A stretch of DNA of 63,377 nt, filler included, from Stramenopiles sp. TOSAG23-2 (taxonomy: Eukaryota): assembly GCA_900128395.1 (NCBI GenBank). It is 10 parts of 10 records of this genome, joined end to end, with 100 filler letters (N's around TTAATTAATTAA, not from the genome) between each part and the next. Parts side by side here need not be neighbours in the genome. Positions count along the whole stretch, not along the records: positions 44,529 to 50,754 come from LT650498.1; 9 more parts are not named here. One strand, 5' to 3'. Both the position numbers and the translations under genes were made by a program. The notes below the pieces were generated by a model. The model saw nothing but the letters and a program-made list of their open reading frames with translations, searched no databases and was not told the origin of the DNA. Of the stretch, positions 2 to 57,935 are shown in pieces. Within the stretch, counting starts at the first letter, position 1, and the number at the start of each line of letters is the position of its first letter.

Positions 2-1825
2 GTATATACAAAATTGTGGCCAGAACCGAGGAGATGGAAGCCACGCTGTGGCGATGTATGGCCATGTTGTAGTAAAATCTTTCGAGAAACACAAATTGTA
101 CCGTTAGCGAACAATAATGAAAATACTACTACTACTACTACAAATAATAATAATAATAATAATAACGAAGGTAAAACAAGTAATAAAAATAACACTGATG
201 TTGGAGATGAAAAAATCAATGGAAAACAAAATTCTGATATGATAAACATTATCCCTGTTAACAAAAAAAATGAAATAAAGAAAGGAAATATCACTGAGAT
301 ATTTTTTGAAGATTATTATACACCAACATTATTTGGCGATATTAAAATGCGCTTAATCGTTGCATTTCTATTTATGGTCATGGTTGGTATTTTCTTGGCA
401 TTTGCTTTGCAAATTAGAGCATCAGAGAAAGATTTTAAAGCGGAAAGCTTTCCAAGTTCCAGTAATTTAATGAGAACACTCAATATTTTGGGTAGATTCG
501 AAGGGGAACAAGATTCTCAAGTTGGTTCGTTTCTATGGGGAATGGGTATAGATGGTTCAAAAGCAGTAAATCGAACAGGGATGGATACTAATAATCCACG
601 TGAATTTGGCTTGCCTGTTTATGATACGAATTTTAACCCATATACGCCTAAAGCACAACAACATGTAATTGATACGTGTAATATTTTTCGCAAAAATAAA
701 CATGTAAAACCAGATGCTATTTACAAAGATGAAGCTGGGGTTTACTGCTTCATGGAACACTTTTGTGATTGGGTACGTGCATTGAACGAAACCTTTCCAA
801 TACCAGAAAAAGCAAAATTGAACAGATTAATGGCCAATTTCATGAACCAACCTTCAAAGACTGTATGTGATTTGGGACAATATCCAGCAAACATATCTGG
901 TTGTGGTGAATATTATGAAACAATTAAAAAGTATCCAGCAACATTATGGATTGGTGCAGACAACTTACACAATGCATGGAATGGTTATGTACGATGGCAC
1001 AATGTAGAAAACAAAGATATAAAACCTGATATTGCTGCTATGTTTATTCACTTTAATGTTTCTATCTTCTGGGATACAGGTGCAATCTATGCAAGGCCAA
1101 TTGCAGATTCTTTAGAAGAATCTATGAAGGAAGCAAATGGTTTGATTGGCAATGATTTCCAAGGATTTCAATATATTCATAATTTATATGTAAACATGCG
1201 TACACAAGAAATTATGTATACTGCATCTTTCATTGGAGCAGCCGTTTCCGGATTGGTGGCTTTTGTAGTATTATCTCTTTCAACAATGAATATAATTATG
1301 GCAGCATATGCCATGATTAATATTTGTTTTATTGTCATATGTTGCATTGGTTTTATGGTAAGCATAGGTTGGGCACTAGGGACAATTGAAGGTATCTGCA
1401 TCACTATTTGTATTGGCTTTTCTGTTGATTTTGTAGTACATGTTGCTATTGCATATGTAGAAGCCGATATTTTATTAAATCGATATGAAAAAACAAAGAA
1501 AGCATTAGGGGAAATGGGAATATCAGTTCTTGGAGCTACCATAACAACAGGTATGAGCTCATTTATCATGGCTTTTTGTCCAATGATACCATTTTCAAAA
1601 ATCGGGATATTCATTTTATTTGATATATCTGTTTCATTACTTTTTGCCGTTGGATTGTTTCCAGCAATGCTAGCAACATTTGGCCCAGAAGGTAACAGTG
1701 GAAGTATTCAGCATATATTGTGTCATAAAAAATGTCCATGGAAAAGAAAAAAGAAGAAATTTACAAATAAAATTGTTGATGCTCGAAGTAGCGATGATGA
1801 ATCAAGTGATGCAGTAATGTTGTGA
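2..1825 (+). CDS. Dispatched/Patched-family RND transporter, C-terminal half (5'-partial)
   Basis: Frame is open from the window edge (VYTKLWPEP...). One TM, a large luminal loop, then five TMs with the RND/Dispatched motif 'IGFSVDFVVHVA' (GxxVD..H) and 'ALGEMGISVLGATITT'. Confidence 0.85.
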   Translation, partial: VYTKLWPEPRRWKPRCGDVWPCCSKIFRETQIVPLANNNENTTTTTTNNNNNNNNEGKTSNKNNTDVGDEKINGKQNSDMINIIPVNKKNEIKKGNITEIFFEDYYTPTLFGDIKMRLIVAFLFMVMVGIFLAFALQIRASEKDFKAESFPSSSNLMRTLNILGRFEGEQDSQVGSFLWGMGIDGSKAVNRTGMDTNNPREFGLPVYDTNFNPYTPKAQQHVIDTCNIFRKNKHVKPDAIYKDEAGVYCFMEHFCDWVRALNETFPIPEKAKLNRLMANFMNQPSKTVCDLGQYPANISGCGEYYETIKKYPATLWIGADNLHNAWNGYVRWHNVENKDIKPDIAAMFIHFNVSIFWDTGAIYARPIADSLEESMKEANGLIGNDFQGFQYIHNLYVNMRTQEIMYTASFIGAAVSGLVAFVVLSLSTMNIIMAAYAMINICFIVICCIGFMVSIGWALGTIEGICITICIGFSVDFVVHVAIAYVEADILLNRYEKTKKALGEMGISVLGATITTGMSSFIMAFCPMIPFSKIGIFILFDISVSLLFAVGLFPAMLATFGPEGNSGSIQHILCHKKCPWKRKKKKFTNKIVDARSSDDESSDAVML

Positions 1826-6276: not shown

Positions 6277-6376
6277 NNNNNNNNNNNNNNNNNNNNNNNN
6301 NNNNNNNNNNNNNNNNNNNNTTAATTAATTAANNNNNNNNNNNNNNNNNNNNNNNNNNNNNNNNNNNNNNNNNNNN
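6277..6376. other. Artificial scaffold spacer N44-TTAATTAATTAA-N44 (also at 12653-12752, 19029-19128, 25401-25500, 31769-31868, 38101-38200, 44429-44528, 50755-50854, 57069-57168)
   Basis: Nine identical 100-bp spacers whose 12-mer gives stops in all six frames. The intervening segments are ordered by non-increasing length. Confidence 0.98.
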
Positions 6377-9710: not shown

Positions 9711-11950
9711 ATGGAAACTTTACAGGATGGTGTAACTCCACATCCAGATGTCGTTTCGGATGAATTAAAAGAAGCGGTAGATTGGAGTATGCAAGAACTG
9801 CTGAAGCGTGCAAAGCAACGACCAAAACTTACAAATCCACTCTTATACTTATCGCAAAAATTACAACAATATTCCGATACAAAACGTAATACTATGCAAA
9901 GCGGCGAGCCGCAAGCGGTTAAAGGTATACTTGGAGAGCGGAGTGGTAGACGGGGTGTTGTGTTTGAAAGCGATGGCGTAGAAAAAGCTGTTCCAAAGGA
10001 AGATATATCTAACCTCCCTGCTGTATCTGAGAAAACAAGTGATAATGCGGAAGCAGCTTCAAAATCGGAAGAAAAAAAAGAGGAGCAAAGCAAGGAAAAG
10101 AAAAAAGAAGAATCTGTTCCTAAGGATGTGAAAGCAACACAAAAAGCAAACCTCAAGCCAACGGAGAAAGCTGTACTAACAGCGGGGAACACAGAAGATT
10201 CTGCTACTATCGATGAAACTATCTTTCAAAAACATCTTTTATTCAAAGATCTGTCGAAAAAGACTGTTACAAAACTACTTGAAGCTATGGTAGACAAAAC
10301 GTACAAAAAAGGTGAGGTTGTTTGTCGTGCAAATACGGATTGTGACTTTGCGTTTGTTTTAACATCAGGGGAATTTGAAAATCCTATGCCAAAAAATGAA
10401 TTTGTTGGAACTGCAAATTTAATGTATGCTATAAAAGCAACAACGACAATGATTGTCTCCAGCGATACTTTAACAATTAAATTGCTTCACAGGAGTAAAT
10501 TTAAATCTACTATGATAGAAAATGGTAAAAATCAATTGAAAGAATATAATACGTTAATTAAAAATTCTACATTTTTTCAAACTCTTGAACATGCAGAAGT
10601 GAAACAATTAGTGAAAGGTCTAAGATCTGCAAAATATGGAGCTGAAGATATAATATTTCAAGTATGCGAATCAATGGCGGAAGATTTGTATATTCTGAAA
10701 AGTGGTACGGTGGAACTTGTAGATCACAATGAAAGTAAAATGCTATCAAAAGGTGATGTATTTGGTGATGAAGTTTTGACATCACCATATTTTCCATATT
10801 CCAGGCGCACAACTGCAATATCAAAATCAGCAGATACAGAAGTGCTTGTAATTAATTATAAATCTTTCAATCGATTGCTGGGATCAATGCAGACTTTTAT
10901 TCAGCGTGATGCTGATATGTATAAAATTTATCAAGAAGAAATCGATCCAACGCCTATTGTCGCGGTTAATGGCAGGCGTGATAGAAGGGAGCAAGTTTAT
11001 GATTTTGATACGACATTTCCAGAGATTGAAGACACTGGTAGTAGTCCTAAAAGGAAACCAAAAAAATCTGAAGAACGTGTTGAATTAGAAAAGGAAGCTA
11101 GAAAAATATTGAAACAAAATGATTATTTTTCATTGAATTATGATAATTCTCAAATATCACAAGTTGCCCAAGCGATGGTGGAGGAAGAATTTGAAGCCGG
11201 TGGTGAAATAGTAAAAGAGGGAGAAATGTCAAACAAATTGTATCTTGTAGTAGATGGTGATGTAGTAGGAAAAAATAGTACTGATGAGGATGTGGAGGGA
11301 CCACTCTTATTTGGAAAAAATAACATGCTGAAAGATTGTCCGTGGAGCAAAACCTTAATATCACCAGATGATTCGGAAGATGGTACAACATGTTTATCAA
11401 TAACACGAGAAAATTTCAAGCGTGCCATTAAATTGGCTATAGTGAAACGGAATAGTGAAATTATGAAATCATTAAAAATTAAGGTACTGAAAGTATTGAC
11501 AAATAAAGAATTATTAAAATTGTGTGACTTTGTCGAATCAAAGGTTTTTAATGCGGATACAGTTGTCATGGAACAAGGTGATATAACAAATGATATGTAT
11601 GTAATAGTTCAAGGTGAAATAGAATCAACAAAGAAAGATGGAAAATCAAGAACATTGAAAAAAGGCGATTATTTCGCGGAAATGGCATTAATGGGCCAAA
11701 TTCCATCTTCATTAACGTATAAAACGAAGAAAAAAACCAAATTGTTTGTTATTAATCGTGATAGTTTTGTTCGAATGCTTGGTCCGTTACGTATTCTTAT
11801 CACCAGGTCTCCAAGGTTATATTATTGTTTGTTATTAATCGTGATAGTTTTGTTCGAATGCTTGGTCCGTTACGTATTCTTATCACCAGGTCTCCAAGGT
11901 TATATGCTGAGTTTGATCGTCGATATCGAGGGAGTCGAAATAAAAAGTAA
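9711..11950 (+). CDS. PKA regulatory-subunit-like protein: Dpy-30/RIIa-like docking motif plus four cNMP-binding domains
   Basis: N-terminal 'LKEAVDWSMQELLKRAKQRPKLTNPLLYLSQKL', then 'RRGVVFE'. CNB signatures 'YKKGEVV', 'DLYILKSGTV...KGDVFGDE', 'FEAGGEIVKEGEMSNKLYLVVDG', 'VMEQGDITNDMYVIVQGE...GDYFAEMAL'. Collapsing the 83-bp duplication gives the end '...RSPRLYAEFDRRYRGSRNKK*' (TAA 11948-11950) instead of the track's 11975. Confidence 0.85.
11741..11905 (+). repeat. Tandem duplication, period 83 bp, frameshifting the cNMP gene 3' end
   Basis: attgtttgttattaatcgtg...ccaaggttatat starts at 11741 and again at 11824. Confidence 0.92.
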
Positions 11951-12549: not shown

Positions 12550-12913
12550 AAATGTATATCATATGATATTTTGATGGTTAAAAATCTAAAGTTATATTTA
12601 AATATTATTATATAATAAAAATATCATATATATATATAATAATATATAAATANNNNNNNNNNNNNNNNNNNNNNNNNNNNNNNNNNNNNNNNNNNNTTAA
12701 TTAATTAANNNNNNNNNNNNNNNNNNNNNNNNNNNNNNNNNNNNNNNNNNNNTGAATTGGAAATTAATACACCTTTTTCGATTTATTCCTATCAAAATCG
12801 TATAAGTCTCTTTAAACGGCAATATGTGCCATACGCAGTGCTATACCCTCTAAACCGTGTCAAAACTGTACAAACCGTGTCAAAACTGTGCACTTAATGT
12901 AACACTTAACAAA

Positions 12914-15041: not shown

Positions 15042-17749
<2,708 letters not shown>

Positions 17750-18581: not shown

Positions 18582-18967
18582 TGGTGTCATATCATCAATA
18601 TTTGTTTCCAATAATACAATAGTTTTTTTTTTATCAAAAACATTTCCTCCTCCTCCTCCTCCCATAGATGATAATAGTACATCTTCTTGTTGCATTGGTG
18701 TATTATTAATATTATTATTAGTAGTAGTATTGGTAACAAGATGGTTACGATTGTTTGGTTGTTCTTGAATAATATGGTGTCATATCATCAATATTTGTTT
18801 CCAATAATACAATAGTTTTTTTTTTATCAAAAACATTTCCTCCTCCTCCTCCTCCCATAGATGATAATAGTACATCTTCTTGTTGCATTGGTGTATTATT
18901 AATATTATTATTAGTAGTAGTATTGGTAACAAGATGGTTACGATTGTTTGGTTGTTCTTGAATAATA
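18582..18967. repeat. Perfect tandem duplication, period 193 bp, frameshifting larC
   Basis: tggtgtcatatcatcaata...gttcttgaataata at 18582-18774 and 18775-18967. Confidence 0.93.
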
Positions 18968-19128
18968 GCATCGCCAATAATTAAACGTAAACAATTTGGT
19001 ACATTCTCAAATTCTTTTGTACCAGCACNNNNNNNNNNNNNNNNNNNNNNNNNNNNNNNNNNNNNNNNNNNNTTAATTAATTAANNNNNNNNNNNNNNNN
19101 NNNNNNNNNNNNNNNNNNNNNNNNNNNN

Positions 19129-25101: not shown

Positions 25102-26735
25102 GAAATATGAAATGGGACACCGAAAAAGAAGAAAAGGGGTGGGGGGGTTAAAAACAAATGTATTAAAATATAGGCATATATATGATATGCCTAGTCTTTT
25201 ATCATATCATAATATATAAAATGTTCTCTTACTCATATATTATACAAATTTTGTTTTTTTTATTTTTTACCGTATATTTTCTCAAGTACAATACGAAGTA
25301 TATTTTATATGATAATGAACATATAAGATACACATATATATATTTACATTTAGATTGATTAAACCATGTGATTTACAACTTTATGAAGGAGTATCTCTTT
25401 NNNNNNNNNNNNNNNNNNNNNNNNNNNNNNNNNNNNNNNNNNNNTTAATTAATTAANNNNNNNNNNNNNNNNNNNNNNNNNNNNNNNNNNNNNNNNNNNN
25501 ATATAATTTTGTTGTATCATTACTATTTTCGTTATACTTGTTATTTATTTTATCTTTTTGCGTGTGCGGCGATATGTACATAATGATTTTATGGCTTGTA
25601 TAGTTGATAGATAATAGCAGTAGATATTTAATGAAGTGATTTTTGTTTATCTATTTGTTTATCCAAACAAAAATCTTCGATTATACTCGGTATATTTATA
25701 TAAATTTTCAGGAGTACCTTTTTTTTTTCTTTTTCCGGCTCCGCAGCCTGCCCTAAGGCCTGGCTCTATTCCTCGTATACTGTATTCCCTAGATTTTCGC
25801 CTAGCAGGCGTGTAAAGGGCACTTCTGCCATTTCCGTAAAAAAATTGCCGCAGGTATCCTTGCAAAGTTGAAATTACAAGGGAATAGCATTGGCGCAATT
25901 CTGCCAAAAATTCCCAACCGAAAATCTGAACTCGCCCAACTTTTTTTTCCAAATCCCTTAAAACGACCCAAAAAATGCCCCGAATGGGAGCGATTTTCAA
26001 ATACTGCAGCTTTGAATTCTGGAAAAAGGACCGAAACAGCCACATTAGCATGGGAATAGAAGGCGCACAATATTGCCTGCTATTGCGATATAATTAAATT
26101 CGGATATGTAAAGAATATGCTAGCAGGTAAATAACACGCTTAATATGGTGAAAAAAAATGGCTTTCTTTTATGATATTTACTATGAAGATACAACTATTA
26201 CACCCGCGAACGCATATATAAAAAACAATGTAAAATTAAAAAACAAACATACAATGGAAAATTAAAAGAAAAAAACAATATAACAATAATAAAGGAAATA
26301 ATACAAAATAAAATATCATGGGCAAATTGATGTTGTAACACATGCACATGGGTGTATGAAAATAAAAATGTCGTGCGAGTAAAAAAAATAAATAAATGTA
26401 TGTGTATTATAAATTGTCTATATATTTTTTGAACTATATGATGTATTTTCAATCATCGACAAGGCAATATCATGGATGGCTATTCGACTTCGTAGCCAAT
26501 TCTCCACCCATGCTACGCCCTTATCCCCACAAATGGGATATAGAAACCTAGCCAAAAGGAAGGCAGTGGAGTGGTTCAAAATAACCGCATCGAAAAATCA
26601 TCATTTCTATAATAAAAAATAATAATTTACATTTTTTCAATCAATTTATTATTGAACCGTGTACCAAAACAAAACCACTTTGTGAAATCATAACATATTG
26701 CAAACCTATTTATTGATATATACCGTAGAGTGGAT

Positions 26736-31407: not shown

Positions 31408-31677
31408 ATCAAATGAATTATTTCAATTATTATTATAAAATAAATTAATTTTATACAACATTTTTTATATTTTCAATTTTTACATGTAAAATTGAATAAA
31501 ATCGATTAATATTTGGTCGTATCTTAATCTTATAATCATATTATCAAATGAATTATTTCAATTATTATTATAAAATAAATTAATTTTATACAACATTTTT
31601 TATATTTTCAATTTTTACATGTAAAATTGAATAAAATCGATTAATATTTGGTCGTATCTTAATCTTATAATCATATT
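31408..31677. repeat. Perfect tandem duplication, period 135 bp, intergenic
   Basis: atcaaatgaattatttc...ttataatcatatt at 31408-31542 and 31543-31677. Confidence 0.92.
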
Positions 31678-32540
31678 AATCAAGAAAAGTATAACTTTTA
31701 GTATGTTTTGATTACATTAAATATATTTTTTCACCATACGATGATAATTTATCAAAATATAAAGATGANNNNNNNNNNNNNNNNNNNNNNNNNNNNNNNN
31801 NNNNNNNNNNNNTTAATTAATTAANNNNNNNNNNNNNNNNNNNNNNNNNNNNNNNNNNNNNNNNNNNNGTACAGATGGCTGTACCTGCGAAAGAAGAAAT
31901 CTGTACCTAAAAGTGATTTAATTAGATTTTTTATACTTTTAACTTTAATTTTCTTACTTTATACTGTCCATATACTATACTTGTATTATACTTATTAGTT
32001 TACCAGCCGAAAAAAAACATTCAATACCAAAAAAAATAAGAAAAGAAGGGGAAAAAGGACAAAGGAAAAAGATGAAGAATAAAAAAAGTATAGCTGGATA
32101 GCACTAGAGCAACGTGCTATAAAAATAGACTATTAACAATGATAATAAAAAAAAAAACAGAATGTATAGTGCAATGCTATATACCACTGGTAGTCTACCT
32201 GAAATAATAATAATATTCGCTCGTTAATTCTTGACATTCTAGCATTATCTCATCCATTGTGCCATTATTATTATTAATTATTATTATATAATAATAGGTG
32301 CTTATAATAACAATATATATACAATAATAAATTGTATATCTACATATGCTATACTCAACATTAATATAGAACATAGAAAGGAATATATAAGATTTACAAG
32401 CAATAGCAGTGTCAGCTAATTTAAAAAAGAGTTGCACCAAGAAATAAACGCCGTGTGGTTATACATTTCATTAAGTAGTACTGCAACAATATACCAATTG
32501 TAGACATATTTAAAAAGAAAAAAACTGTAAACATTGAAGC

Positions 32541-38100: not shown

Positions 38101-38202
38101 NNNNNNNNNNNNNNNNNNNNNNNNNNNNNNNNNNNNNNNNNNNNTTAATTAATTAANNNNNNNNNNNNNNNNNNNNNNNNNNNNNNNNNNNNNNNNNNNN
38201 CT

Positions 38203-41349: not shown

Positions 41350-43455
41350 CTAAAGCCTACAATTACCTTTACTACGATCTTGTAACAATCGCCGTCGCCT
41401 TACGTCATCATTCGAACCAGTCACTTTATATTGCGTTCCTGTCAATACAATAACTTTGGAATATTTTTTACTCGTTATATCATTCAATGCAGTCAACTTA
41501 TCATCCTTACAACCTGGTTTAAGAATACATTGTTTATAATCTCTTAAATCGTCACAACAATTGCTATTATCAACGTATGCTTGCACTTCCACTTTTGCAC
41601 CAATTAAATACTCTCTTGCTTTGCAATATGGCAATTCACTGTTTAAATAACTATTTTCATCTTTTGTATTTAAATTAACAACAGCAACCCATTCTTTTCT
41701 TTCACCTAATGTATCCATTACTACTTGCTGTATGGAAATATCGTTTGCAGTGAATAATGGAGCAGCTGGACAACTGGTGTCTTTGATATCGTATCGTAAC
41801 GATCGTTTCAGATTAATCATGTAACTTGCATATTCTGATGAAATATCACCTTTCAAATAATGAATTGCAATATTTTTAACAGCAGTATTAGATAAATCTA
41901 AATGATTCGAACCTTTACAAAATCGTGACTTCATTTCTACTAAATTACCCGATGTCCATTTTGTACTAGTTACTTTGTGGTTGCATTGCTGCTCTGCTTT
42001 TGGTGTTTTAGATCCTGGTTTTGCTTGCATGATTTGTTGCATCTTTGTATTTTTTCCTATGCGATGTCTGGAATTTAATTGACGTTTACGCAACGACGAT
42101 TCCAACGTTTGTAATAACGAGTATGATGATGAAGATTCCTGTATTTTCATAGGTTTTTCTAAGACTTGTTCAAGTAAATTATAAAATTGTTTCATTGCAT
42201 GATGATACGGTATAAATAATTCACATAATTTATGTTCACTTTTGCCTGGTTCATCAACGATACGTGGTCCACATAACGAGACTTCATTGAAAAAAGAATC
42301 GACTAATTTTTTTGCATGTTTCGTTTTACTTTTGCCCAGGGATTCAAGTAATTTTTTTATACCTTTGTGTAAATAACCATTCTGTTTAATCGTATCAGTC
42401 ACTTCAACATATAAATTATGTTTACTATAATCACCACCTTGTGATAATGCAAATGGTATTATATTTTCACGTTTTATGGTGCTACCTGTAGGTGGATTAC
42501 ATGCTTTTAAATTTTTATCACGTCGTTCTTTACAACATATTTCAGGCCAAAATGATTTTGCTTCTTTATCGATATTTTGTATTTGAAATAAATTATCTAA
42601 ATCCGATGCGAAGGAACAAAATGATTTTAATAATTCATCACGATTGGTATCGATGCATGTAGTATCTTCGTTCAATTCTATTTCATTTGATATTTCAATG
42701 GCAGGAAAGACCACAGTGCCTTTACTACGTTGTGTTTCACATGATTTTTCTTCATTTATATCATCTTTTGCTTTACGTCCTTTCATGTATTTATCATGTT
42801 GCAATCTAATTTGTTCTTTTTGCCATAGGCGCTCATTTTTCTTTGATATTTCGTTCTGTTCTTGTTTCAACGAATTTAGTTTTCCTGATAAAATTTTATT
42901 GTCGTTTTTTATATTTGTTACATCATCAAGCACGGTTTTTTTTAAGTCGTCTGAAGCTTGTGCGGCAGTCTTGTGACATTCCGCGCTGGATTTCGCACCA
43001 GTTATAGAGTTAGTAGTTGGTGCAGATGTTGGACACGGCGTGCATTTATCATTGTTAAGCCCGCCACGGCTATAAGTATTCATAGGACACTTGATGCACT
43101 CTTGTTTGCAAATGCACCCAAGATTACCGTACCCACAAGGAGCACTAGATGAACCAGTCACAAACGAAAGACCTCCTGACTTCACATTCTCGGTACAACC
43201 AGCAGGCCATTTAGTTGATTTTATATGCGTTGTTTTTTTCCGCGTACCAAATATGTTTTTATGCCTCATCTCACACTCTTTCCTTGCCGAGTACAAACGA
43301 GATGACATTATTATTGAGTCACAGTTGCCCTCGCGTAAAACAAAGTTAGGTGCTTTTCCAGTTCTATATCCTGGTTCGCACGAATAGCCTTTAGGTGCTA
43401 CTGAATCTTTGATAATAAAGAACAGCATACACAAAAAAGTCTCCAAAATCCTCAT
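41350..43455 (-). CDS. Secreted Cys-rich protein with a GCC2/GCC3 (ephrin-receptor-like) module and coiled coil
   Basis: Signal peptide, 'CIKCPMNTYSRGG..DKCTPCP....TNSITGAKSSAEC', coiled-coil segment, 'SYSLLQ' and C-terminal 'RRRRLLQ'. Confidence 0.7.
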   Translation of the reverse strand: MRILETFLCMLFFIIKDSVAPKGYSCEPGYRTGKAPNFVLREGNCDSIIMSSRLYSARKECEMRHKNIFGTRKKTTHIKSTKWPAGCTENVKSGGLSFVTGSSSAPCGYGNLGCICKQECIKCPMNTYSRGGLNNDKCTPCPTSAPTTNSITGAKSSAECHKTAAQASDDLKKTVLDDVTNIKNDNKILSGKLNSLKQEQNEISKKNERLWQKEQIRLQHDKYMKGRKAKDDINEEKSCETQRSKGTVVFPAIEISNEIELNEDTTCIDTNRDELLKSFCSFASDLDNLFQIQNIDKEAKSFWPEICCKERRDKNLKACNPPTGSTIKRENIIPFALSQGGDYSKHNLYVEVTDTIKQNGYLHKGIKKLLESLGKSKTKHAKKLVDSFFNEVSLCGPRIVDEPGKSEHKLCELFIPYHHAMKQFYNLLEQVLEKPMKIQESSSSYSLLQTLESSLRKRQLNSRHRIGKNTKMQQIMQAKPGSKTPKAEQQCNHKVTSTKWTSGNLVEMKSRFCKGSNHLDLSNTAVKNIAIHYLKGDISSEYASYMINLKRSLRYDIKDTSCPAAPLFTANDISIQQVVMDTLGERKEWVAVVNLNTKDENSYLNSELPYCKAREYLIGAKVEVQAYVDNSNCCDDLRDYKQCILKPGCKDDKLTALNDITSKKYSKVIVLTGTQYKVTGSNDDVRRRRLLQDRSKGNCRL

Positions 43456-44428: not shown

Positions 44429-44528
44429 NNNNNNNNNNNNNNNNNNNNNNNNNNNNNNNNNNNNNNNNNNNNTTAATTAATTAANNNNNNNNNNNNNNNN
44501 NNNNNNNNNNNNNNNNNNNNNNNNNNNN

Positions 44529-47500
44529 AGTTTAAGAATAGATAACACGTTTGATGTTACAAATTTACAATGTGCATCTGGATATGAAGGTAATAATCTA
44601 ACTGTAACTAAATGTACAAATGATGGTGATCCATATTTAGTAAGTGGCTGTACATTTTCCTTTTGTCAGTGGAACAGTCCGGAGGGTTGCAAAAAGTGCC
44701 AGCATAATTTGTACTTGCACAATGGAACATGCATTTCAACATGTCCAGATGGTTTTGTGGAGCGAAGACCAACGTCACGATCAGCAACTGGAAGAAGTTG
44801 CATGGCCATACACTCGGACGTAATTGTGAAAATGTGGGGGAGTTCTAATAAGCCAAGTTACACTCCTGCAGGATTGACAAGTGGTGTGATTACAATATTT
44901 TCCACTAGGTACGCCTTTGCTGCATTAAAATCAGATGGAAGTGTAAAAGCATGGGGGAGTAGTAGTTATGGAGGCACTGATCCAGGATTGACAAGTGGTG
45001 TGGTTACAATATTTCACACTGGTAGTGCCTTTGCTGCATTAAAATCTGATGGAAGTGTAAAAGCATGGGGGGATAGTGATCGGGGAGGCGCTGATCCAGG
45101 ATTGACAAGTGGTGTAGTTACTATATTTTCCAATTCGTGGGCCTTTGCTGCATTAAAATCAGATGGAAGTGTAAAAGTATGGGGGAATAGTGATCGGGGA
45201 GGCGCTGATCCAGGATTGACAAGTGGTGTTGTTGCAATATTTTCCACTGGTAGTGCCTTTGCTGCATTAAAATCAGATGGAAGCGTAAAAGCATGGGGGG
45301 ATAGTGAAGTTGGAGGCGCTGATCCAGGATTGACAAGTGATGTGGTTACTATATTTTCCAATTCGTACGCCTTTGCTGCATTAAAATCAGATGGAAGCGT
45401 AAAAGCATGGGGGAGTAGTTGGTATGGAGGCGATGATCCAGGATTGACAAGTGGTGTGGTTACAATATTTTCCACTAAGTACGCCTTTGCTGCATTAAAA
45501 TCAGATGGAAGTGTAAAAGTATGGGGTGATAGTAATTACGGAGGCACTGATCCAGGATTGACAAGTGGTGTAGTTACAATATTCTCCAATTCGTACGCCT
45601 TTGCTGCATTAAAATCTGATGGAAGCGTAAACGTATGGGGGAGTATTAGTTCTGGAGGCACTGATCCAGGATTGACAAGTGGTGTGGTTACAATATTTTC
45701 CAATTGGTACGCCTTTGCTGCATTAAAATCAGATGGAAGTGTAAAAGTATGGGGTGATAGTAATTACGGAGGCACTGATCCAGGATTGACAAGTGGTGTA
45801 GTTACAATATTTTCCAATTCGTACGCCTTTGCTGCATTAAAATCAGATGGAAGTGTAAAAGTATGGGGGAATAGTAGATTTGGAGGCACTGATCCAGGAT
45901 TGACAAGTGATGTGGTCACCATATTTTCCACTGGTAGTGCCTTTGCTGCATTAAAATTTGAAAGTTGTGTACGTCCAAGTACAATACGATTATTGGTATC
46001 TTATGAAAGACAAACAAGTTCAAAATGTGCAACTCCAATTACTTCTATGTCTGAATGTAATACTGCTGCTACGCAATTAGATTTTCCGCATACATCGGCG
46101 TACAACGACAATCAAGATGGTGCAAGTTCGGATCCAAACGGGTGTTATTATGAGCATGGCAGTTTAAAATTCAACGCGAAAATGACAAATACGGGAAATT
46201 GTAACGGAAATGACAAATGTCTGTGCAGGAAAGAAGTGTTTGTGCCATTTACATATCCAGTGGGTTACAACGTGACAAATCTAGTTGAAAATAATTTAGC
46301 TATGAATGAAATAAATGTATGTATAAATAAAAAATACTGATCTCCATTTATGTTTTCTTGGCAAAAAAACTAACATTTATTATTTTTTAAACACACGTTC
46401 ACATATATTTTTATTGTATATATATACATATAGGTAACTGGGTTGAAATGTGCTAATGGATACGCTGGATCACCGACAATACTAACATGCAGCTCTGATG
46501 AAACGTTTTATAACTTTACTGGATGCGAATTAATACCAACATGCAAACCTATGTATGTTGATCAGTATTTTATCGCAACATCTGCTGGTTCAACATTTTC
46601 TATTGGTGCAAACCCTATTGACACGTTGAACGAATGTGAAACTGCCATAAATGGATTATTGCCTTCACTTAATGTGGCTACAATAAGTCGCGCATACGAA
46701 ATGCAAATAAGGGGGAAATGTGCAAATCCAATTACTTCTATGTCTGAATGTAATACTGCTGCTACGAGATTAGGGACTACGGATACATCAGCGCGCGACG
46801 ACAATCAAAATCGTGGATGGTTGGATCCAAAAGGGTGTTATATTAAGCAAGTACGCATAAGTAGCAGCAGAGGTGTACACACCTCTTATCATTTAAAATT
46901 CAACGTGAAAATGACAAATACGGGAAATTGTGATGGAAGTAACAAATGTCTATGCAGGAAAGAACCACCAACAAATTGTTGGATAAAAAACCAAAACGCA
47001 AACACGATTCAAGCATATTTTACTAACGTCCAAAGTCAAGGAGCATGTACAAGTAAGTTCCCTTGTGTATTCAAGAGGAAAGTCTGGGCATCCCAATCTA
47101 GATATTCCCAGAAAAGCTATGGGAGATGTATTATTGTTATTCAAACGAAGGATGAATGTGAAGCTGCGGCTATGGCACTTAGTTATAACGATGTAACAGC
47201 CATGTCATATGATAGCAACTCTTATCCGGCAGGGTGTTACTATGAAAGCCTCGGTTCTAGGTTATATTTCAACCGTAAAACAACAAGCAATGCAGTTTGT
47301 AGCTCTAGTCAATCTTGTCTTTGTAATAAAGTACAGCATGTACCATCAATACCAGGCTACAATATTAATAATATACAGGAACATAATTTAAGGACTGATA
47401 TCATTAGTGTTACTGGTGTTACATGTGCACATGGTTATATTGGAACACCAAAAATAATTGGATGCTCTGTTGATAATAGACCATATCATATATCAGGTTG

Positions 47501-50500
47501 CTTTCCAGCATGTATTCGCCCAACAGCATCAGTAGGTTACGATTTTACAAATATCAATGAAACTGATTTAAGAATGAATAGTTTAAAGGTTACTGGTTTA
47601 AAATGCGCACCTGGTTATCAAGGTACACCAAGCGTTAGTAAATGTCATTTTGCAAATCATGAATATTCTGTCACTGGGTGCATTCAATTGCCATCATGCA
47701 CATCTATGAAATTTATGTCTGTTCCAGGCTACGACTTTACAAATGGAGTTGAAGATAATTTAGCGATTGGTCAATTAAATATTTATGGTATCACATGCGC
47801 TAATGGTTATGTTGGATCACCCACAATAAGTACATGCAACGCTGCTGATGAACCATACAGTATATCGGGCTGTATTAAAATACCAGTATGTTTAAGTTTA
47901 TGGATTAATTCTAGCTATTTCCAGAAAACTAGTGGAAGATGTAATGATCTTGATCTTGTTGATCTTGGAATAGGTATTGGTACGAAGGATGAATGTGAAG
48001 CTGGGGCTAAAAAACTTAGTTATAACGATATGACAGCTACAACAACATCTACCCTCCATTTTCCGCCAGGATGTTCTTATTATCACACCACAAACATGTT
48101 GTATTTCAACGCATTACAATCAAGCAACCAAGTTTGTACCTCTAGTAAATCTTGTCTTTGTAAGAAAATAGCGCAGATACCAGGCTATTACAACGTTGAT
48201 AATATACAGGAACATAATTTAAGGACTGATATCATTAGTGTTACTGGTGTTACATGTGCACATGGTTATATTGGAACACCAAAAATAATTGGATGCTCTG
48301 TTGATAATAGACCATATCATATATCAGGTTGCTTTCCAGCATGTATTCGCCCAACAGGATCAGTGGGTTACGATTTTACAAATATCAATGAAACTGATTT
48401 AAGAATGAATAGTTTGAAGGTTACTGGTTTAAAATGCGCACCTGGTTATCAAGGTACACCAAGCGTTAGCAAATGCATTATTGGTAATACAAATTACGTT
48501 ATCGTTGGCTGCACTGCGATACCCGATACATGCACACGGCCATTTTTTTCTTCGCATAACGCACAAGCAAATAGTATGGCGGGATATGATTTTTCGGCAG
48601 TTGTAGAAACAAGTTTGAGAAAAGATCAATTACATGTAACTGGTATCAAATGTGCTGCTGGTTTTGCTGGGGTAGTATCGGTTTCTCCATGTGTAAGTTC
48701 AAACGAACCATATATTGTTTCCGGATGCGTTCAATTATGCAAAAGGCCTACAAATACTGTAGGATACAATTTCGACGCTGTTATCGAATCGTCACTGAAG
48801 ATTAATCAATTTGATGTGACTGGCATTACATGTGCTGCTGCTGCTGGTTATTCCGGATCTGTATCTGTATCTAAATGCGCGAATGGGAATGGTACAGAAT
48901 ATTTAATTACAGGATGTAACTTAGATCCGACTAAAGTTTGCGTACGCCCATCTATTTCTACTTTGCAATCATATGGGTATAACGTCATTGAATACGACAC
49001 AACAAAAGAAGGTTTCAATGTTGTTGTTGATGGTTGTCTTGGAGGTTATGTAACTAGAAATGGGATTATTCCAAGCGTAACCTTGTGCAATGATCTCGGT
49101 GACACTTTTAGTGCTTATACTTTGCAGGGTTGTTATATGAGGAATGTAAGGAGGTACAAACTGGTAACGTCCGGTTTATGCAAGCTGAACGATGAAATTT
49201 TAAACGAAGGAGATTGTAACAGTGGAATTAGTCATCTAGGATTGCACGATGAATATGGTGACGTGTTTAGAGTATTTAGTCATGCTAATACCAATGTTCC
49301 AGGATGCTACGTTTCCACTGAGTTTAAAAAATCGTATTTGAATAGGGGAAATGTTCAATATAGAGAACAGTGTTCATCAACAACGAAATGTATATGCATC
49401 GATTCAACAAAACCACCAGGTGTACCTAATATATACCACACAAGTACAGCTGTACCGACTACTATATTGCCGTCTATTTCAACCACTTCGATTCCAGTAC
49501 CAACAGCTGGTGTTGAAACTACAACGGCAGTTCATCAACAATCACCAACTACTACTACTGCTCCAACCAACCAACAAGTAACAACCTCAAGCCTAGAAAT
49601 TGAAAACATCGTTGTAGAACAAAAATTGGAATTCAGTGGAGCAACTGAAACCCAATTAAAAGCTAATAAAAAAAGTATTGAAAAGGCATTAGCAAAAACA
49701 CTCGGTGTAGCTGCCAATGATGTAACAATCATTGAAATTATTGAAGTTCAACGACAAAAAAGACGAAATTTACTAGGAAGTAGTAGCAGTAGCAGTAGTA
49801 GTAGCACTGAAAAGAGTACATATATTGAAATAATTTATGAAGTAAAAGTTAAAGATGAAGTCGAAGCAAAAGGTATGGAATTAAATATGAAAAAAGAAAC
49901 CTTTAAATCCACTATTAACAGTAACATACAAGCAGAATCACCAAGTTTAAATGCTACTGTAGAAAATGTTGAAAACCCTACTGTTAAAAAAAGGTACAAG
50001 CAGAATGTAGGAAATGCAAATACACTTGGTAGAAAAAGTAATACAGAAAATGACAATCATGCTAGTACAACAGATTCCAATGACAAGGAAGACGCATCCT
50101 CATCATCATCATTTACAATTGTTATAATCTTATTTGTAGCTGCAATATTATTTGGTAGCGGATTCATGATTTATAATCGCAAATATAAAACCAAAACAAT
50201 TAACAATGGTTTCAAAGACAATATTAAGTTACAAAATAGAAATACATGGGATATGAATGCAATTGAATTAAAAAAACGTGATAATCCAAATAAAATAAGT
50301 GCAAATGATAATAGTAGTACAAAAAGTAGTAGTAGTAGTAGTAGTAGCAGCAGCAGCACTACAAATACAAAAATTAAATTTCAATTAAATCCATTACGTA
50401 CATCAGCAATTGGCTTTGTAATAGAAGACAAAATAGAAGCAGCTAGACCCCCAATGTTAAATAAAAATTCAAAGCCGAACCGTCATTCTGTAATGACTAT

Positions 50501-50630
50501 TGATAATGACGAACAATGGATTGAATATATTGATGACAATAATGGCAAACCATATTACCACAATGTGATATCAAATGTAGTTCAATGGGAGAAACCAAAA
50601 GAACTTTTATTTCATAAAATTAGTTCGTAA
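44529..50630 (+). CDS. Modular single-pass surface protein: Cys-rich repeats, RCC1-like repeat array, Thr-rich stalk, SEA-like region, TM, cytosolic WW domain; exons <44529-46316 and 46434-50630 (5'-partial)
   Basis: Frame is open from the scaffold edge (SLRIDNTFDVTNLQCASGY). Intron 46317-46433 (gtatgt..ctaac..atag) restores the repeat consensus 'ENNLAMNEIN|VTGLKCANGY'. TM 'FTIVIILFVAAILFGSGFMIY'. WW 'WIEYIDDNNGKPYYHNVISNVVQWEKP'. Confidence 0.88.
44869..45958 (+). repeat. Coding tandem array of about ten 114-bp (38-aa) RCC1-like units
   Basis: Core gcctttgctgcattaaaa (AFAALK) at 44913, 45027, 45141, 45255, 45369, 45483, 45597, 45711, 45825 and 45939. Confidence 0.95.
47368..48475 (+). repeat. 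Near-identical intragenic duplication of about 277 bp (47368-47644 and 48199-48475, offset 831 bp)
   Basis: Both copies encode NIQEHNLRTDIISVTGVTCAHGY...CAPGYQGTPSVSKC, with only a few substitutions. In frame. Confidence 0.88.
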
Positions 50631-51699
50631 TTAAAATATAAATTATTGACACATTATTAATTCTTGTATATTTTTTTATTTTTATACGTATAGAGTTATC
50701 TACATTAAAGATGGTGAATTTTTTTTTTTTTTTTTTTTTTTTACTTTTTTTTTTNNNNNNNNNNNNNNNNNNNNNNNNNNNNNNNNNNNNNNNNNNNNTT
50801 AATTAATTAANNNNNNNNNNNNNNNNNNNNNNNNNNNNNNNNNNNNNNNNNNNNGATAATTGTCCCTATGAAGTTTTTTTAATATATGGAAATAGCATTA
50901 TAAAATTAGTATGGACACAGTCCTTTCAACATTTTACTCATGAAAATTGTGTTTTTCAGCCACATTTTCTGTTTTCCATTTCCTATCATATTTATACTTA
51001 ATATAGTCCTTTTCATATACTAAGTAGATTTGTAGTGTTTGATATATTTGATAGGCCAGATTAGGTGTTTTTTGTACTTGAGAGAAGGGCAAATTTCTTT
51101 ATTTATCCATATCGGATATTTATACAAATATTTTAACCACAAAAAATAATTGAATTTTTGACCATACCGATCTAATTATCATAAAGTAGATACACTAGTA
51201 AGTATAAAATCTAAAAAGCTCCTATTCGACCTATAAGAATGTTTTTTTTTTCCATGTTTACTGGAGTAAGGAATAAATGCCACCTGGTGGTAGGCTTGAT
51301 AATTTTTTCAATAGTAAACAGTAAACAACAGTGTCTTATTATAGCGTCCATACCGAATACCACCTCCCTATTTTTTTTTCATTGCTGGATTACTTTCATT
51401 ATTGGATTAGTACTAAAGCTTCACATCTTTTTAGTACAATACTATACCAGTACTGTAGTACAATATATTACTGTATTGTAATGGTTATTAATTTCAATTA
51501 TTATCTTTAGCGTATCACACTTATATTTATTATTATTCGAATAAATAATTAAAACATTGTGGTGCTGTGTACAATCTATAATCTTAAAACGTAAGGTCCA
51601 TTATTTAATTTAAAACGGACAACCATAACAAGTAGAGTAGAATTGCAACAACAACAAAGATAACAGCAAATAATACATTTTTTTTTTTAAAGTGTCAAC

Positions 51700-56894: not shown

Positions 56895-57935
56895 GGCTCA
56901 AAAATTGATTGAGTATTTATTTGAATTTGATTGCATAATGATGCATGTTTAATACACGGTATATTATAATTATTATGATATACATATAATTTATATTATT
57001 ATTATCATCATTTTATAATACAAATAGTTTGCGATCAACATGGGCCACCTGGAAAAACACGACGCCCANNNNNNNNNNNNNNNNNNNNNNNNNNNNNNNN
57101 NNNNNNNNNNNNTTAATTAATTAANNNNNNNNNNNNNNNNNNNNNNNNNNNNNNNNNNNNNNNNNNNNTCGCCATAGTTTCGATAATATTATAATTAATT
57201 AGTTGTCACAATATATATATATATATACCGTTATATATAATCACTTGATCAAGTATAGAATAATAACACACACAACTTTGTCGTGTTCTACTACTCTTCT
57301 TATTTAATTCTATTAATACTATCAATTATATTTTTAAATAAATATTTTGATGAGTCTAACGAGGAGGAGATGGGGATGGTTTTGGTGTTTTTTTGATGCT
57401 GCTCTGGTGCTGTGCACCTGTTATTATATTTTTGGATTTGCCATGCCGGGCATGCAATTTTGCACTTTTCTATTTTTCTTAAAAATATTTTAATTTCAAA
57501 AAAAAAATAAAAACAACAACAAGGAAAATGCGAAAGGTAATTAGAATACTGGAATATAATACCTTAACAATTCTAAAATTTTCTTACGGGTTTAATTAGC
57601 TATTAATAGTAGTGCTATTTGCATGTACTGTATTATTCTCGTCGACGATCAAAAAATCAGAGAGAAATCTCTCTGAAAAAATCATCAAAAAACAGCAGTT
57701 AGAAAAAAAATATATTATTAAGTTATAAAAGTTAAAACACAAGTAAAAACAAATACAATTTGAATTTTGAAAATACTGACTGTAATACATTGTCAAGGTG
57801 TAACAACAACACAAACACGATATTGCATCCACGTATCTACCCCCCCTGTCTCTCCCCTATCTCTGTGATAAGTCTAGACGACTACAGACTTTGTATACAC
57901 AATAACAATTATTATTAAAAATATACAGATAATAA

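Follow-up and report, generated by a model that had tools for sequence, protein, structure and literature searches.

A propeller array with near-identical blades and hypervariable loops in the predicted ectodomain of a stramenopile membrane protein

When near-identical repeats differ from one another almost only in two short cassettes, do they form a dedicated recognition system or follow a pattern common to their repeat family? The question is raised by a locus of Stramenopiles sp. TOSAG23-2 (NCBI GenBank assembly GCA_900128395.1), where a tandem array of 114-bp units lies in contig LT650498.1, one of ten contigs in the 63,377-nucleotide stretch of DNA that was analysed as a whole (the window). 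A first-pass annotation of this sequence had likened the two cassettes, V1 and V2, to antibody or variable lymphocyte receptor (VLR) paratopes and had proposed a combinatorial receptor system. Our analysis indicates that the array is probably a propeller of approximately ten blades on the extracellular side of a type I membrane protein, that its loops make up a predicted ligand-binding face, and that its blades probably evolve in concert under selection on those loops.

Repeat anatomy and predicted fold

Tandem Repeats Finder reported a period of 114 between 44869 and 45957 (9.6 copies, 86% matches, score 1537) together with a 228-bp super-period (4.8 copies, 89% matches). The motif GLTS recurs ten times at intervals of exactly 38 codons from 44871, in the frame of the open reading frame (ORF) 44709–46340, and the array (44871–45962) consists of nine full in-frame 114-bp units with a half unit at each end. 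The half units were found with a hidden Markov model (HMM) built from the nine full units. The elements of the array are as follows.

44871..45896, plus strand: nine full units of 38 codons each (Pfam RCC1_2, 127.6 bits; unit HMM)
44901+114(k-1) to 44912+114(k-1) for unit k (1–9), plus strand: V1, codons 11–14 of the unit
44958+114(k-1) to 44969+114(k-1) for unit k (1–9), plus strand: V2, codons 30–33 of the unit
44805..44849, plus strand: N-terminal half unit (strand C and a V2-like loop), HMM positions 18–32; proposed closing strand of blade 10
45897..45962, plus strand: half unit at the C-terminus, in which a V1 of STGS separates strands A and B; HMM positions 1–22

The tenth unit comprises its first ~20 codons only, and its missing last strand would be supplied by the upstream half unit. 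V1 reads STRY, HTGS, SNSW, STGS, SNSY, STKY, SNSY, SNWY, SNSY and STGS in units 1–10, and V2 reads SSSY, DSDR, NSDR, DSEV, SSWY, DSNY, SISS, DSNY and NSRF in units 1–9; both lists match exactly those of the first-pass annotation, which had also recognised about ten 114-bp units on a nearly invariant scaffold. Its further observation that identical cassettes recur in different V1/V2 combinations was borne out as well. Three copies of the V1 cassette ACT GGT AGT are present, one beside V2 DSDR, one beside V2 DSEV and one in the half unit; AAT TCG TAC is likewise found three times (with V2 SSWY, SISS and NSRF), and the V2 cassette DSNY twice (with V1 TKY and V1 NWY). The enrichment in Y, W, R, S, D and N reported for the variable residues is also present, with 45 of the 57 residues at the six most variable positions being S, Y, N, D, R or W. 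Cysteine is absent from every unit.

The units are RCC1_2 repeats (Pfam PF13540; 127.6 bits, cut-off 22; E 8.5e-38) and do not reach the classical RCC1-like domain (Pfam PF25390 WD40_RLD; 65.4 bits, cut-off 150). That domain, found in RCC1, HERC2 and UVR8, has seven four-stranded blades of 50–60 residues. A match to SNN_transmemb (28.6 bits, 0 stretches) was rejected as a low-complexity artefact of the repeat. Two AlphaFold2 models, model 1 built from 43 mixed homologues and model 2 from 32 arrays found on viral contigs, reached predicted local distance difference test (pLDDT) values of 90.6 and 92.7, respectively, and both had a predicted template modelling score of 0.88. In both models, according to DSSP, each 38-residue unit consists of three strands plus a short helical turn. 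Model 2 contains 30 strands, comprising 27 in the nine full blades and three terminal strands, of which two lie in the C-terminal half unit (E371–376 and E380–386, pLDDT 73–91) and one in the N-terminal half unit (E7–13, pLDDT 52–63). With moderate confidence, we posit from these models a ring of ten three-stranded blades closed by a 'velcro' strand.

Comparison with solved structures places the predicted fold among RCC1-related propellers. The best match is BLIP-II (beta-lactamase inhibitory protein II) of Streptomyces exfoliatus (PDB 1JTD, 3QHY, 3QI0), with a Foldseek E value of 5.8e-15 and 32% identity, and with Z 17.3, a root-mean-square deviation (rmsd) of 7.0, 238 aligned residues and 37% identity by VIA. 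It is followed in the structure ranking by UVR8, HERC2, RCC1 and the CRINKLY4 ectodomain. A profile search of solved structures found HERC2 and RCC1 and did not find BLIP-II, and a sequence search of solved structures gave 0 matches at E <= 0.001 and four chance-level matches at E <= 10. Matches over the whole model (5..379) were to the propellers of eIF2A and eIF3b (rmsd 4.7–5.1, 300–305 aligned), which are nine-bladed; these agree with a single large ring and not with two small rings. Among viral models, the top match had a template modelling score of 0.81 over 442 columns. The resemblance to RCC1-like propeller blades recorded in the first-pass annotation is upheld by the RCC1_2 assignment, by both models and by BLIP-II as the top solved match.

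In every blade, V1 is a three-residue tight turn between strands A and B (for example between E29–34 and E38–43), and V2 directly follows strand C (E48–52), with a short helical turn, at the start of the inter-blade loop, while the invariant SDGS forms the turn between strands B and C. Because connections alternate between faces in an up-and-down sheet, V1 and V2 are placed on the same face and SDGS on the other, so that, by the topology of the predicted models, both cassettes would lie on one face of the propeller, as a binding-surface role for them would suppose. Approximately 20 loops rich in Tyr, Ser, Asn, Asp, Trp and Arg would thus ring one face, which by analogy with the apical turns and inter-blade loops of BLIP-II most likely forms a ligand-binding surface. 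The spacing between V1 and V2 is 19 residues, similar to that of the contact residues listed for BLIP-II (~19–21 and 39 apart in the portion of PMC10817188 consulted), although the mapping of these contacts onto V1 and V2 is approximate only.

Evolution of the units and their relatives

Differences among the units are concentrated in the loops. Polymorphic sites make up 18 of the 24 sites in the eight V codons compared with 13 of 90 in the scaffold (Fisher p = 3e-8), and the V codons, with 21% of sites, carry 331 of 502 pairwise differences (66%). Nucleotide identity between units is 94.7% in scaffold codons and 61.7% in V codons. Scaffold non-synonymous divergence (dN) is 0.034 and synonymous divergence (dS) 0.122, a ratio of 0.28, and V codon dN reaches 0.586, approximately five times scaffold dS. 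Extra codon states are non-synonymous and synonymous in a ratio of 20:1 in V and 7:7 in the scaffold (Fisher p = 0.003). The units also carry a mosaic signal: the pairwise homoplasy index (PHI) is 0.387, where permutation gives a mean of 0.507 (p = 0.002), and incompatibility affects 111 of the 231 informative site pairs.

The first-pass annotation had ascribed the array to unequal crossover or gene conversion acting with diversifying selection to build a binding surface. The recombination that it supposed agrees with the mosaic signal, and there is an excess of non-synonymous change at V over silent change in the scaffold, though as evidence of selection this excess is confounded by copying between blades. 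The antibody- or VLR-like receptor system found no support, since the variation seen lies between the blades of one protein and not between alleles, cells or a gene repertoire. We posit that repeated copying between blades, by unequal crossover or gene conversion, would produce the near-identity of the scaffold, silent sites included, as expected under concerted evolution, and that selection would keep or make the loop codons different.

Related arrays place this pattern in a wider context. An alignment-based scan of viral contigs recovered 113 relatives at 72 loci, the best of them 57–66% identical over residues 2–391; a scan of viral contigs with a single protein query found nothing. The best relatives (L002–L011) lie on IMG/VR contigs of 67–250 kb, some labelled GVMAG, and the carriers on viral contigs are fibre-like proteins with pentapeptide and collagen repeats or giant Cys-rich proteins. 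Two loci open at both ends, L002 and L003, encode proteins of >2380 residues that combine classical RCC1 repeats and many Cys-rich repeats with ten-unit BLIP-II-like arrays, of which L003 has two. Bacterial arrays reach 60–63% identity to the array studied here. Most of the longer relatives found are large proteins that carry Calx-beta, cadherin or Ig-like domains, all extracellular types, and a search for longer proteins that also match the flanks, in a collection that does not include the window protein itself, returned none, query cover being <=78%, which corresponds to the array alone.

The layout of a half unit, nine units and a half unit was present in all ten viral-contig arrays dissected. 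When the window array was compared with nine of them (L006 was dropped, one unit having aligned poorly), units of the same rank were no closer than units of other ranks, at 0.68–0.79 either way, while units within the window array were 0.93 identical. An old ten-blade layout in which blade identity follows the array and not the rank points to concerted evolution. In every array entropy peaks at unit positions 13, 14, 30, 32 and 33, and loop variation in a cyanobacterial homologue follows the same pattern; variability at these positions is therefore a property of the repeat family. On these alignments the trait appears to be family-wide and to evolve in concert, and does not look like the work of a dedicated diversification machine.

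The same observations bear on a plainer account, in which the array is an ordinary, recently amplified propeller under no selection for diversity. Its units would stem from a recent block copy, for example of units 6–7 into 8–9, the loops would be its least constrained parts, and the loop residues of each blade would build one fixed asymmetric binding site. Consistent with this, the 228-bp super-period outscores the 114-bp period, a 105-bp exact repeat occurs at offset 228, and the loop positions are variable in every related array; in addition, highly repetitive RCC1/BLIP-II propellers make up 10% of highly repetitive propellers and undergo ongoing amplification, according to the portion of PMC9218822 consulted. 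However, a comparison of units 6 and 8 shows change at 3 of 24 V sites, all in two adjacent V1 codons, and at 0 of 90 scaffold sites, and V codon dN is approximately five times the silent divergence of the scaffold. The ten-blade layout is moreover common to arrays that are 57–66% identical yet have no rank-for-rank orthology, which requires continued homogenisation and not one recent burst. We therefore consider simple amplification unlikely, albeit a contender to be taken seriously, and prefer concerted evolution accompanied by selection on the loops.

The host gene and competing explanations

The gene that carries the array can be reconstructed within its own contig. Nine spacers of the form N44-TTAATTAATTAA-N44, one per ~6.3 kb, separate pieces arranged in descending order of size, which indicates that the window is a chain of unordered contigs and limits the genomic context of the array to 44529–50754. 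No units or modules of this protein were found elsewhere in the window, outside 44529–50754.

44529..50754, no strand assigned: contig holding the propeller gene (LT650498.1), 6226 bases, flanked by spacers
6277–6376, 12653–12752, 19029–19128, 25401–25500, 31769–31868, 38101–38200, 44429–44528, 50755–50854 and 57069–57168: spacers
44532..46316, plus strand: exon 1, an open frame whose 5' end is lost at the contig edge; GT donor, phase 0
44565..44768, plus strand: furin-like Cys-rich segment adjoining the propeller upstream (Pfam Furin-like_2, E 2e-05, 25.2 bits, under the curated cut-off of 28)
46317..46433, plus strand: putative intron, GT..AG, phase 0; stop at 46338–46340, frame back at 46434, module 'NEIN|VTGLKC' restored
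46434..50630, plus strand: exon 2, with repeated Cys modules, a Ser/Thr-rich stalk, a transmembrane (TM) segment and a cytosolic tail; ends in a stop codon
50112..50174, plus strand: single TM segment, FTIVIILFVAAILFGSGFMIY, followed by basic residues; top Kyte-Doolittle 19-mer score of exon 2 (2.64)
50511..50597, plus strand: WW domain at the cytosolic C-terminus (Pfam PF00397, E 4.6e-09; 36.6 bits, cut-off 26.9)

In exon 1 the order is Cys module, furin-like piece, propeller array, second Cys module. The interruption at 46317–46433 is probably a spliceosomal intron, and a homologue at a metagenome locus (L001, 50% identical) is broken at the same point; among public runs, whose RNA contigs are short, none crosses the junction of exons 1 and 2 (46316/46434). 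Two RNA contigs from the marine metatranscriptome run X4 match exon 2 at 46446–46714 and 46759–46992 with 0 mismatches; no X4 contig falls on the array, a gap in cover that carries no information about its expression. The Cys modules of exon 2 match no Pfam family at E <= 1, a search of the Atlas with exon 2 gave no usable match, and only three relatives of exon 2 were found among the 5.8 billion proteins searched.

The propeller is placed outside the cell because of the Cys-rich and Ser/Thr-rich parts of the protein and the basic residues after the membrane span, which suggests a type I membrane protein with an extracellular propeller and a cytosolic WW tail. This is the arrangement given in the first-pass annotation, and the TM segment and the WW domain are both found downstream of the array. 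The cytosolic tail is ~150 residues long and has the WW domain at its end, and the protein may signal through it. For a WW domain, the extreme end of the tail of a single-pass membrane protein is an unusual placement, and it is kept in a 50%-identical homologue (P0121).

Three further features of the window and of L001 were recorded. Summed contig depth over 44529–44736 is 165.6 in run X1 and 71.5 in run X3, with as many as 13 contigs at a single position, against <=37 elsewhere on the contig, and the first Cys module is therefore a member of a multi-copy family. A separate contig holds a 701-residue ORF on the minus strand (41350–43455) with an ephrin-receptor-like Cys-rich domain (23.5 bits, cut-off 23.1), a further Cys-rich protein of surface type in this assembly. 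At L001, near the homologous receptor gene, an 84-bp repeat array (15643–16694, 12.5 copies, 79% matches, also with a period of 252) encodes leucine-rich-type repeats.

The propeller module is not present in every form of the gene. The L001 homologue is without it, and in one RNA contig (X4), as well as in a loose end in the DNA run X3, position 44654 is joined to 45965 with the same 11 letters between. This joint replaces 1310 bases by 11 letters and yields a linker of the usual kind between modules, GCTKILYCVRPS; in its flanks, 10 of 93 and 6 of 292 positions depart from the window sequence. There is thus, as DNA, a close paralogue or allele that lacks the furin-like piece and the propeller. 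GC content at third codon positions (GC3) is 0.237 in the array and 0.235 in exon 2, indicating that the propeller module is not a recent foreign arrival.

Several considerations weigh against the reading of the array as a closed, extracellular propeller with selected loops. The contrast in dN/dS uses paralogous blades of one gene, and copying between blades lowers scaffold dS, so that a ratio >1 is no proof of an arms race. Within V itself dS is 0.34 on only 4.4 silent sites, giving an imprecise dN/dS of 1.7, and because V silent divergence is also raised, the contrast between V and scaffold partly reflects a scaffold that is homogenised while V escapes. The common face of V1 and V2 is deduced from strand topology and not from coordinates. 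Closure of the ring involves termini whose pLDDT is moderate to low in model 2, and in model 1 both ends are unstructured. The N-terminus of the window protein is lost at the contig edge, and a signal peptide is suggested by the signal-like hydrophobic stretch at the start of the L001 homologue alone. Lastly, cover of the array in runs X1–X3 consists of short contigs (<= ~320 bases among those listed), and the order and number of units therefore rest on the assembly.

This last point raises the prospect of an assembly artefact, in which one or more paralogous arrays would have been collapsed, expanded or merged into a mosaic by a fragmentary assembly, possibly of amplified single-cell DNA. Besides the short span of the listed X1–X3 contigs at the array, the runs contain hand-decoded cassettes that are absent from the window array, namely RSDW (V2 of unit 3), TGN (V1 of unit 4) and TGG (V1 of unit 10), which indicates that further copies or alleles exist that differ in their loops. 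Ten of the 11 variant positions of X1–X3 inside the array fall in V codons, in contigs too short for assignment to allele, paralogue or unit. Other contigs of the window also hold two-copy tandem duplications that look like assembly errors. These lie at 11741–11905, 15084–15399, 18582–18967 and 31408–31683 with periods of 83, 158, 193 and 135; the first three are perfect and the fourth is 99% identical, and one of the four lies inside a Myb-like coding region. Within the array, however, only one exact internal repeat is at least 60 bases long (105 bp), so that reads or k-mers longer than ~105 bases suffice to order the units. In X1, a contig of 321 bases (44618–44938) crosses the left junction into unit 1 with 0 mismatches, the frame is open throughout, and the array ends at the same domain boundaries as all ten viral-contig arrays. 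We accordingly hold an artefact to be rather improbable. Two apparent cases of variation in unit number, an X2 joint from 45079 to 45198 (skipping 118, with 4 letters between) that decodes to V2 DSEV of unit 4 and an X2 variant at 45011–45026 that decodes to V1 SNWY of unit 8, were rejected, as they are most simply contigs of other units placed on the wrong unit.

A viral source for the module, or for the whole contig, is also conceivable: the propeller would derive by capture from a giant virus, or the giant virus would have captured it, with a role in virus-host recognition. The closest full-length arrays found (57–66%) lie in fibre-like proteins on IMG/VR contigs, some of them labelled GVMAG, a close array-less form of the gene is present in a DNA and an RNA library, and the 50%-identical homologue lacks the propeller. 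On the other hand, array GC3 equals that of the rest of the gene, the intron stands at a conserved place, the TM segment and WW domain are eukaryotic modules, and 64–66% identity does not indicate recent transfer. With bacterial arrays reaching 60–63% no donor can be named, and homogenisation of the blades makes trees of the propeller domain unreliable. Taken together this leaves a viral derivation highly improbable. Dedicated diversification, whether mutagenic retro-homing of the type seen in diversity-generating retroelements or VLR-like somatic assembly of cassettes, is scarcely credible and was rejected: beyond the appearance of a constant frame with cassettes in new combinations, the window (searched for template-like copies and not for reverse transcriptase, in a contig of 6.2 kb) holds no template-like copy of the array, changes fall at all three codon positions (6, 8 and 4 polymorphic V sites) and are not limited to adenine-coded positions, and bacterial and viral homologues show the same pattern with no such machinery needed.

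Significance and comparison with known systems

The locus illustrates a known evolutionary pattern cleanly and does not represent a new mechanism. Its novelty lies in the carrier, a type I membrane protein of a protist that has a WW tail and a propeller in its ectodomain, and in the finding that its closest full-length relatives detected here lie on putative giant-virus contigs. It adds a cellular, eukaryotic and membrane-anchored member to the class of fast-evolving propellers, until now encountered chiefly in surface proteins of bacteria, tail modules of phages and fibres of giant viruses. Surface recognition in marine protists is little known, and if the loop face does bind prey, viruses or cells, proteins of this kind would be candidate recognition receptors of these organisms. 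The ten-blade module common to a protist surface protein and putative giant-virus fibres also provides a concrete pair of candidates for a possible host-virus link. More speculatively, and with little weight attached by us, the host protein (as receptor, decoy or adhesin, its loop face reshuffled between cells through exchange of cassettes) and the viral fibres (as its counterpart or a captured copy) could be engaged in one recognition contest; were this true, the array-less and array-bearing forms and the extra cassettes would represent parts of a recognition repertoire that a unicellular eukaryote maintains at the population level.

The repeat class itself has been surveyed by Pereira and Lupas (2022), whose highly repetitive RCC1/BLIP-II propellers are mostly bacterial with few eukaryotic and viral members in the part of the paper available (PMC9218822). 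Those propellers have near-identical blades of the same repeat class as the window array, and neither a membrane-protein architecture nor a hypervariable-loop pattern is described in that part of the source. BLIP-II, which binds and inhibits class A beta-lactamases, is in the descriptions available a secreted binder related to RCC1 with blades of ~38–40 residues, each made of three strands plus a short helical turn; apical turns together with inter-blade loops hold its target. The window array resembles it in its short three-stranded blades and in the position of V1 and V2, which by topology correspond to those turns and loops. It differs in having approximately ten blades (nine full and two half units) compared with seven, and in being a domain of a eukaryotic membrane protein, whereas BLIP-II is bacterial, small and soluble, and its blades are differentiated.

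The plant receptor kinase CRINKLY4 (CR4/ACR4) offers the nearest parallel in architecture. Its ectodomain (PDB 7A0J, 7A0K) matched the model with Z 14.5 and 12.7 at 14–19% identity, and in the accessible text of PMC4617170 it is a BLIP-II/RCC1-like propeller of ~39-residue three-stranded repeats that adjoins a Cys-rich domain. Both are eukaryotic type I membrane proteins, as predicted for the window protein, with an extracellular propeller beside a Cys-rich part. CRINKLY4, in contrast, has seven differentiated repeats with conserved cysteine pairs and a cytosolic kinase, while the window protein has ten blades, no cysteine in its units, a WW tail and no kinase detected by Pfam. The viral-contig arrays come closer in the propeller itself, sharing its layout, its hypervariable positions and blades homogenised within each array, but they reside in fibre or giant secreted-type proteins and not in a TM-WW membrane protein, and scaffold uniformity is lower in them (0.74–0.89 compared with 0.93).

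The HNWD/NWD family is the best described example of this mode of array evolution, and for it allelic repeat-number polymorphism and a recognition function have been demonstrated. Its repeats are kept near-identical in DNA by inter-repeat exchange and carry few hypervariable positions each, on the interaction face. The family comprises NLR-like proteins of Podospora anserina, including het-d and het-e, whose WD40 repeats are noted for 'high internal conservation' (HIC) in the accessible portions of PMC1805685, PMC2873952, PMC4986451 and PMC12222747. The window protein lacks an NLR architecture (NACHT or NB-ARC plus WD40, ANK or TPR), Pfam finding only RCC1_2, the furin-like piece and WW. The fungal HIC repeats are WD40 repeats of intracellular NLR sensors with demonstrated polymorphism and recognition, whereas the window array consists of RCC1_2 repeats in a predicted ectodomain. 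The two are nevertheless alike in how their units vary, the window array having near-identical DNA units (scaffold 94.7%), few hypervariable positions and a non-synonymous excess, with a loop face that topology places on one side of the propeller.

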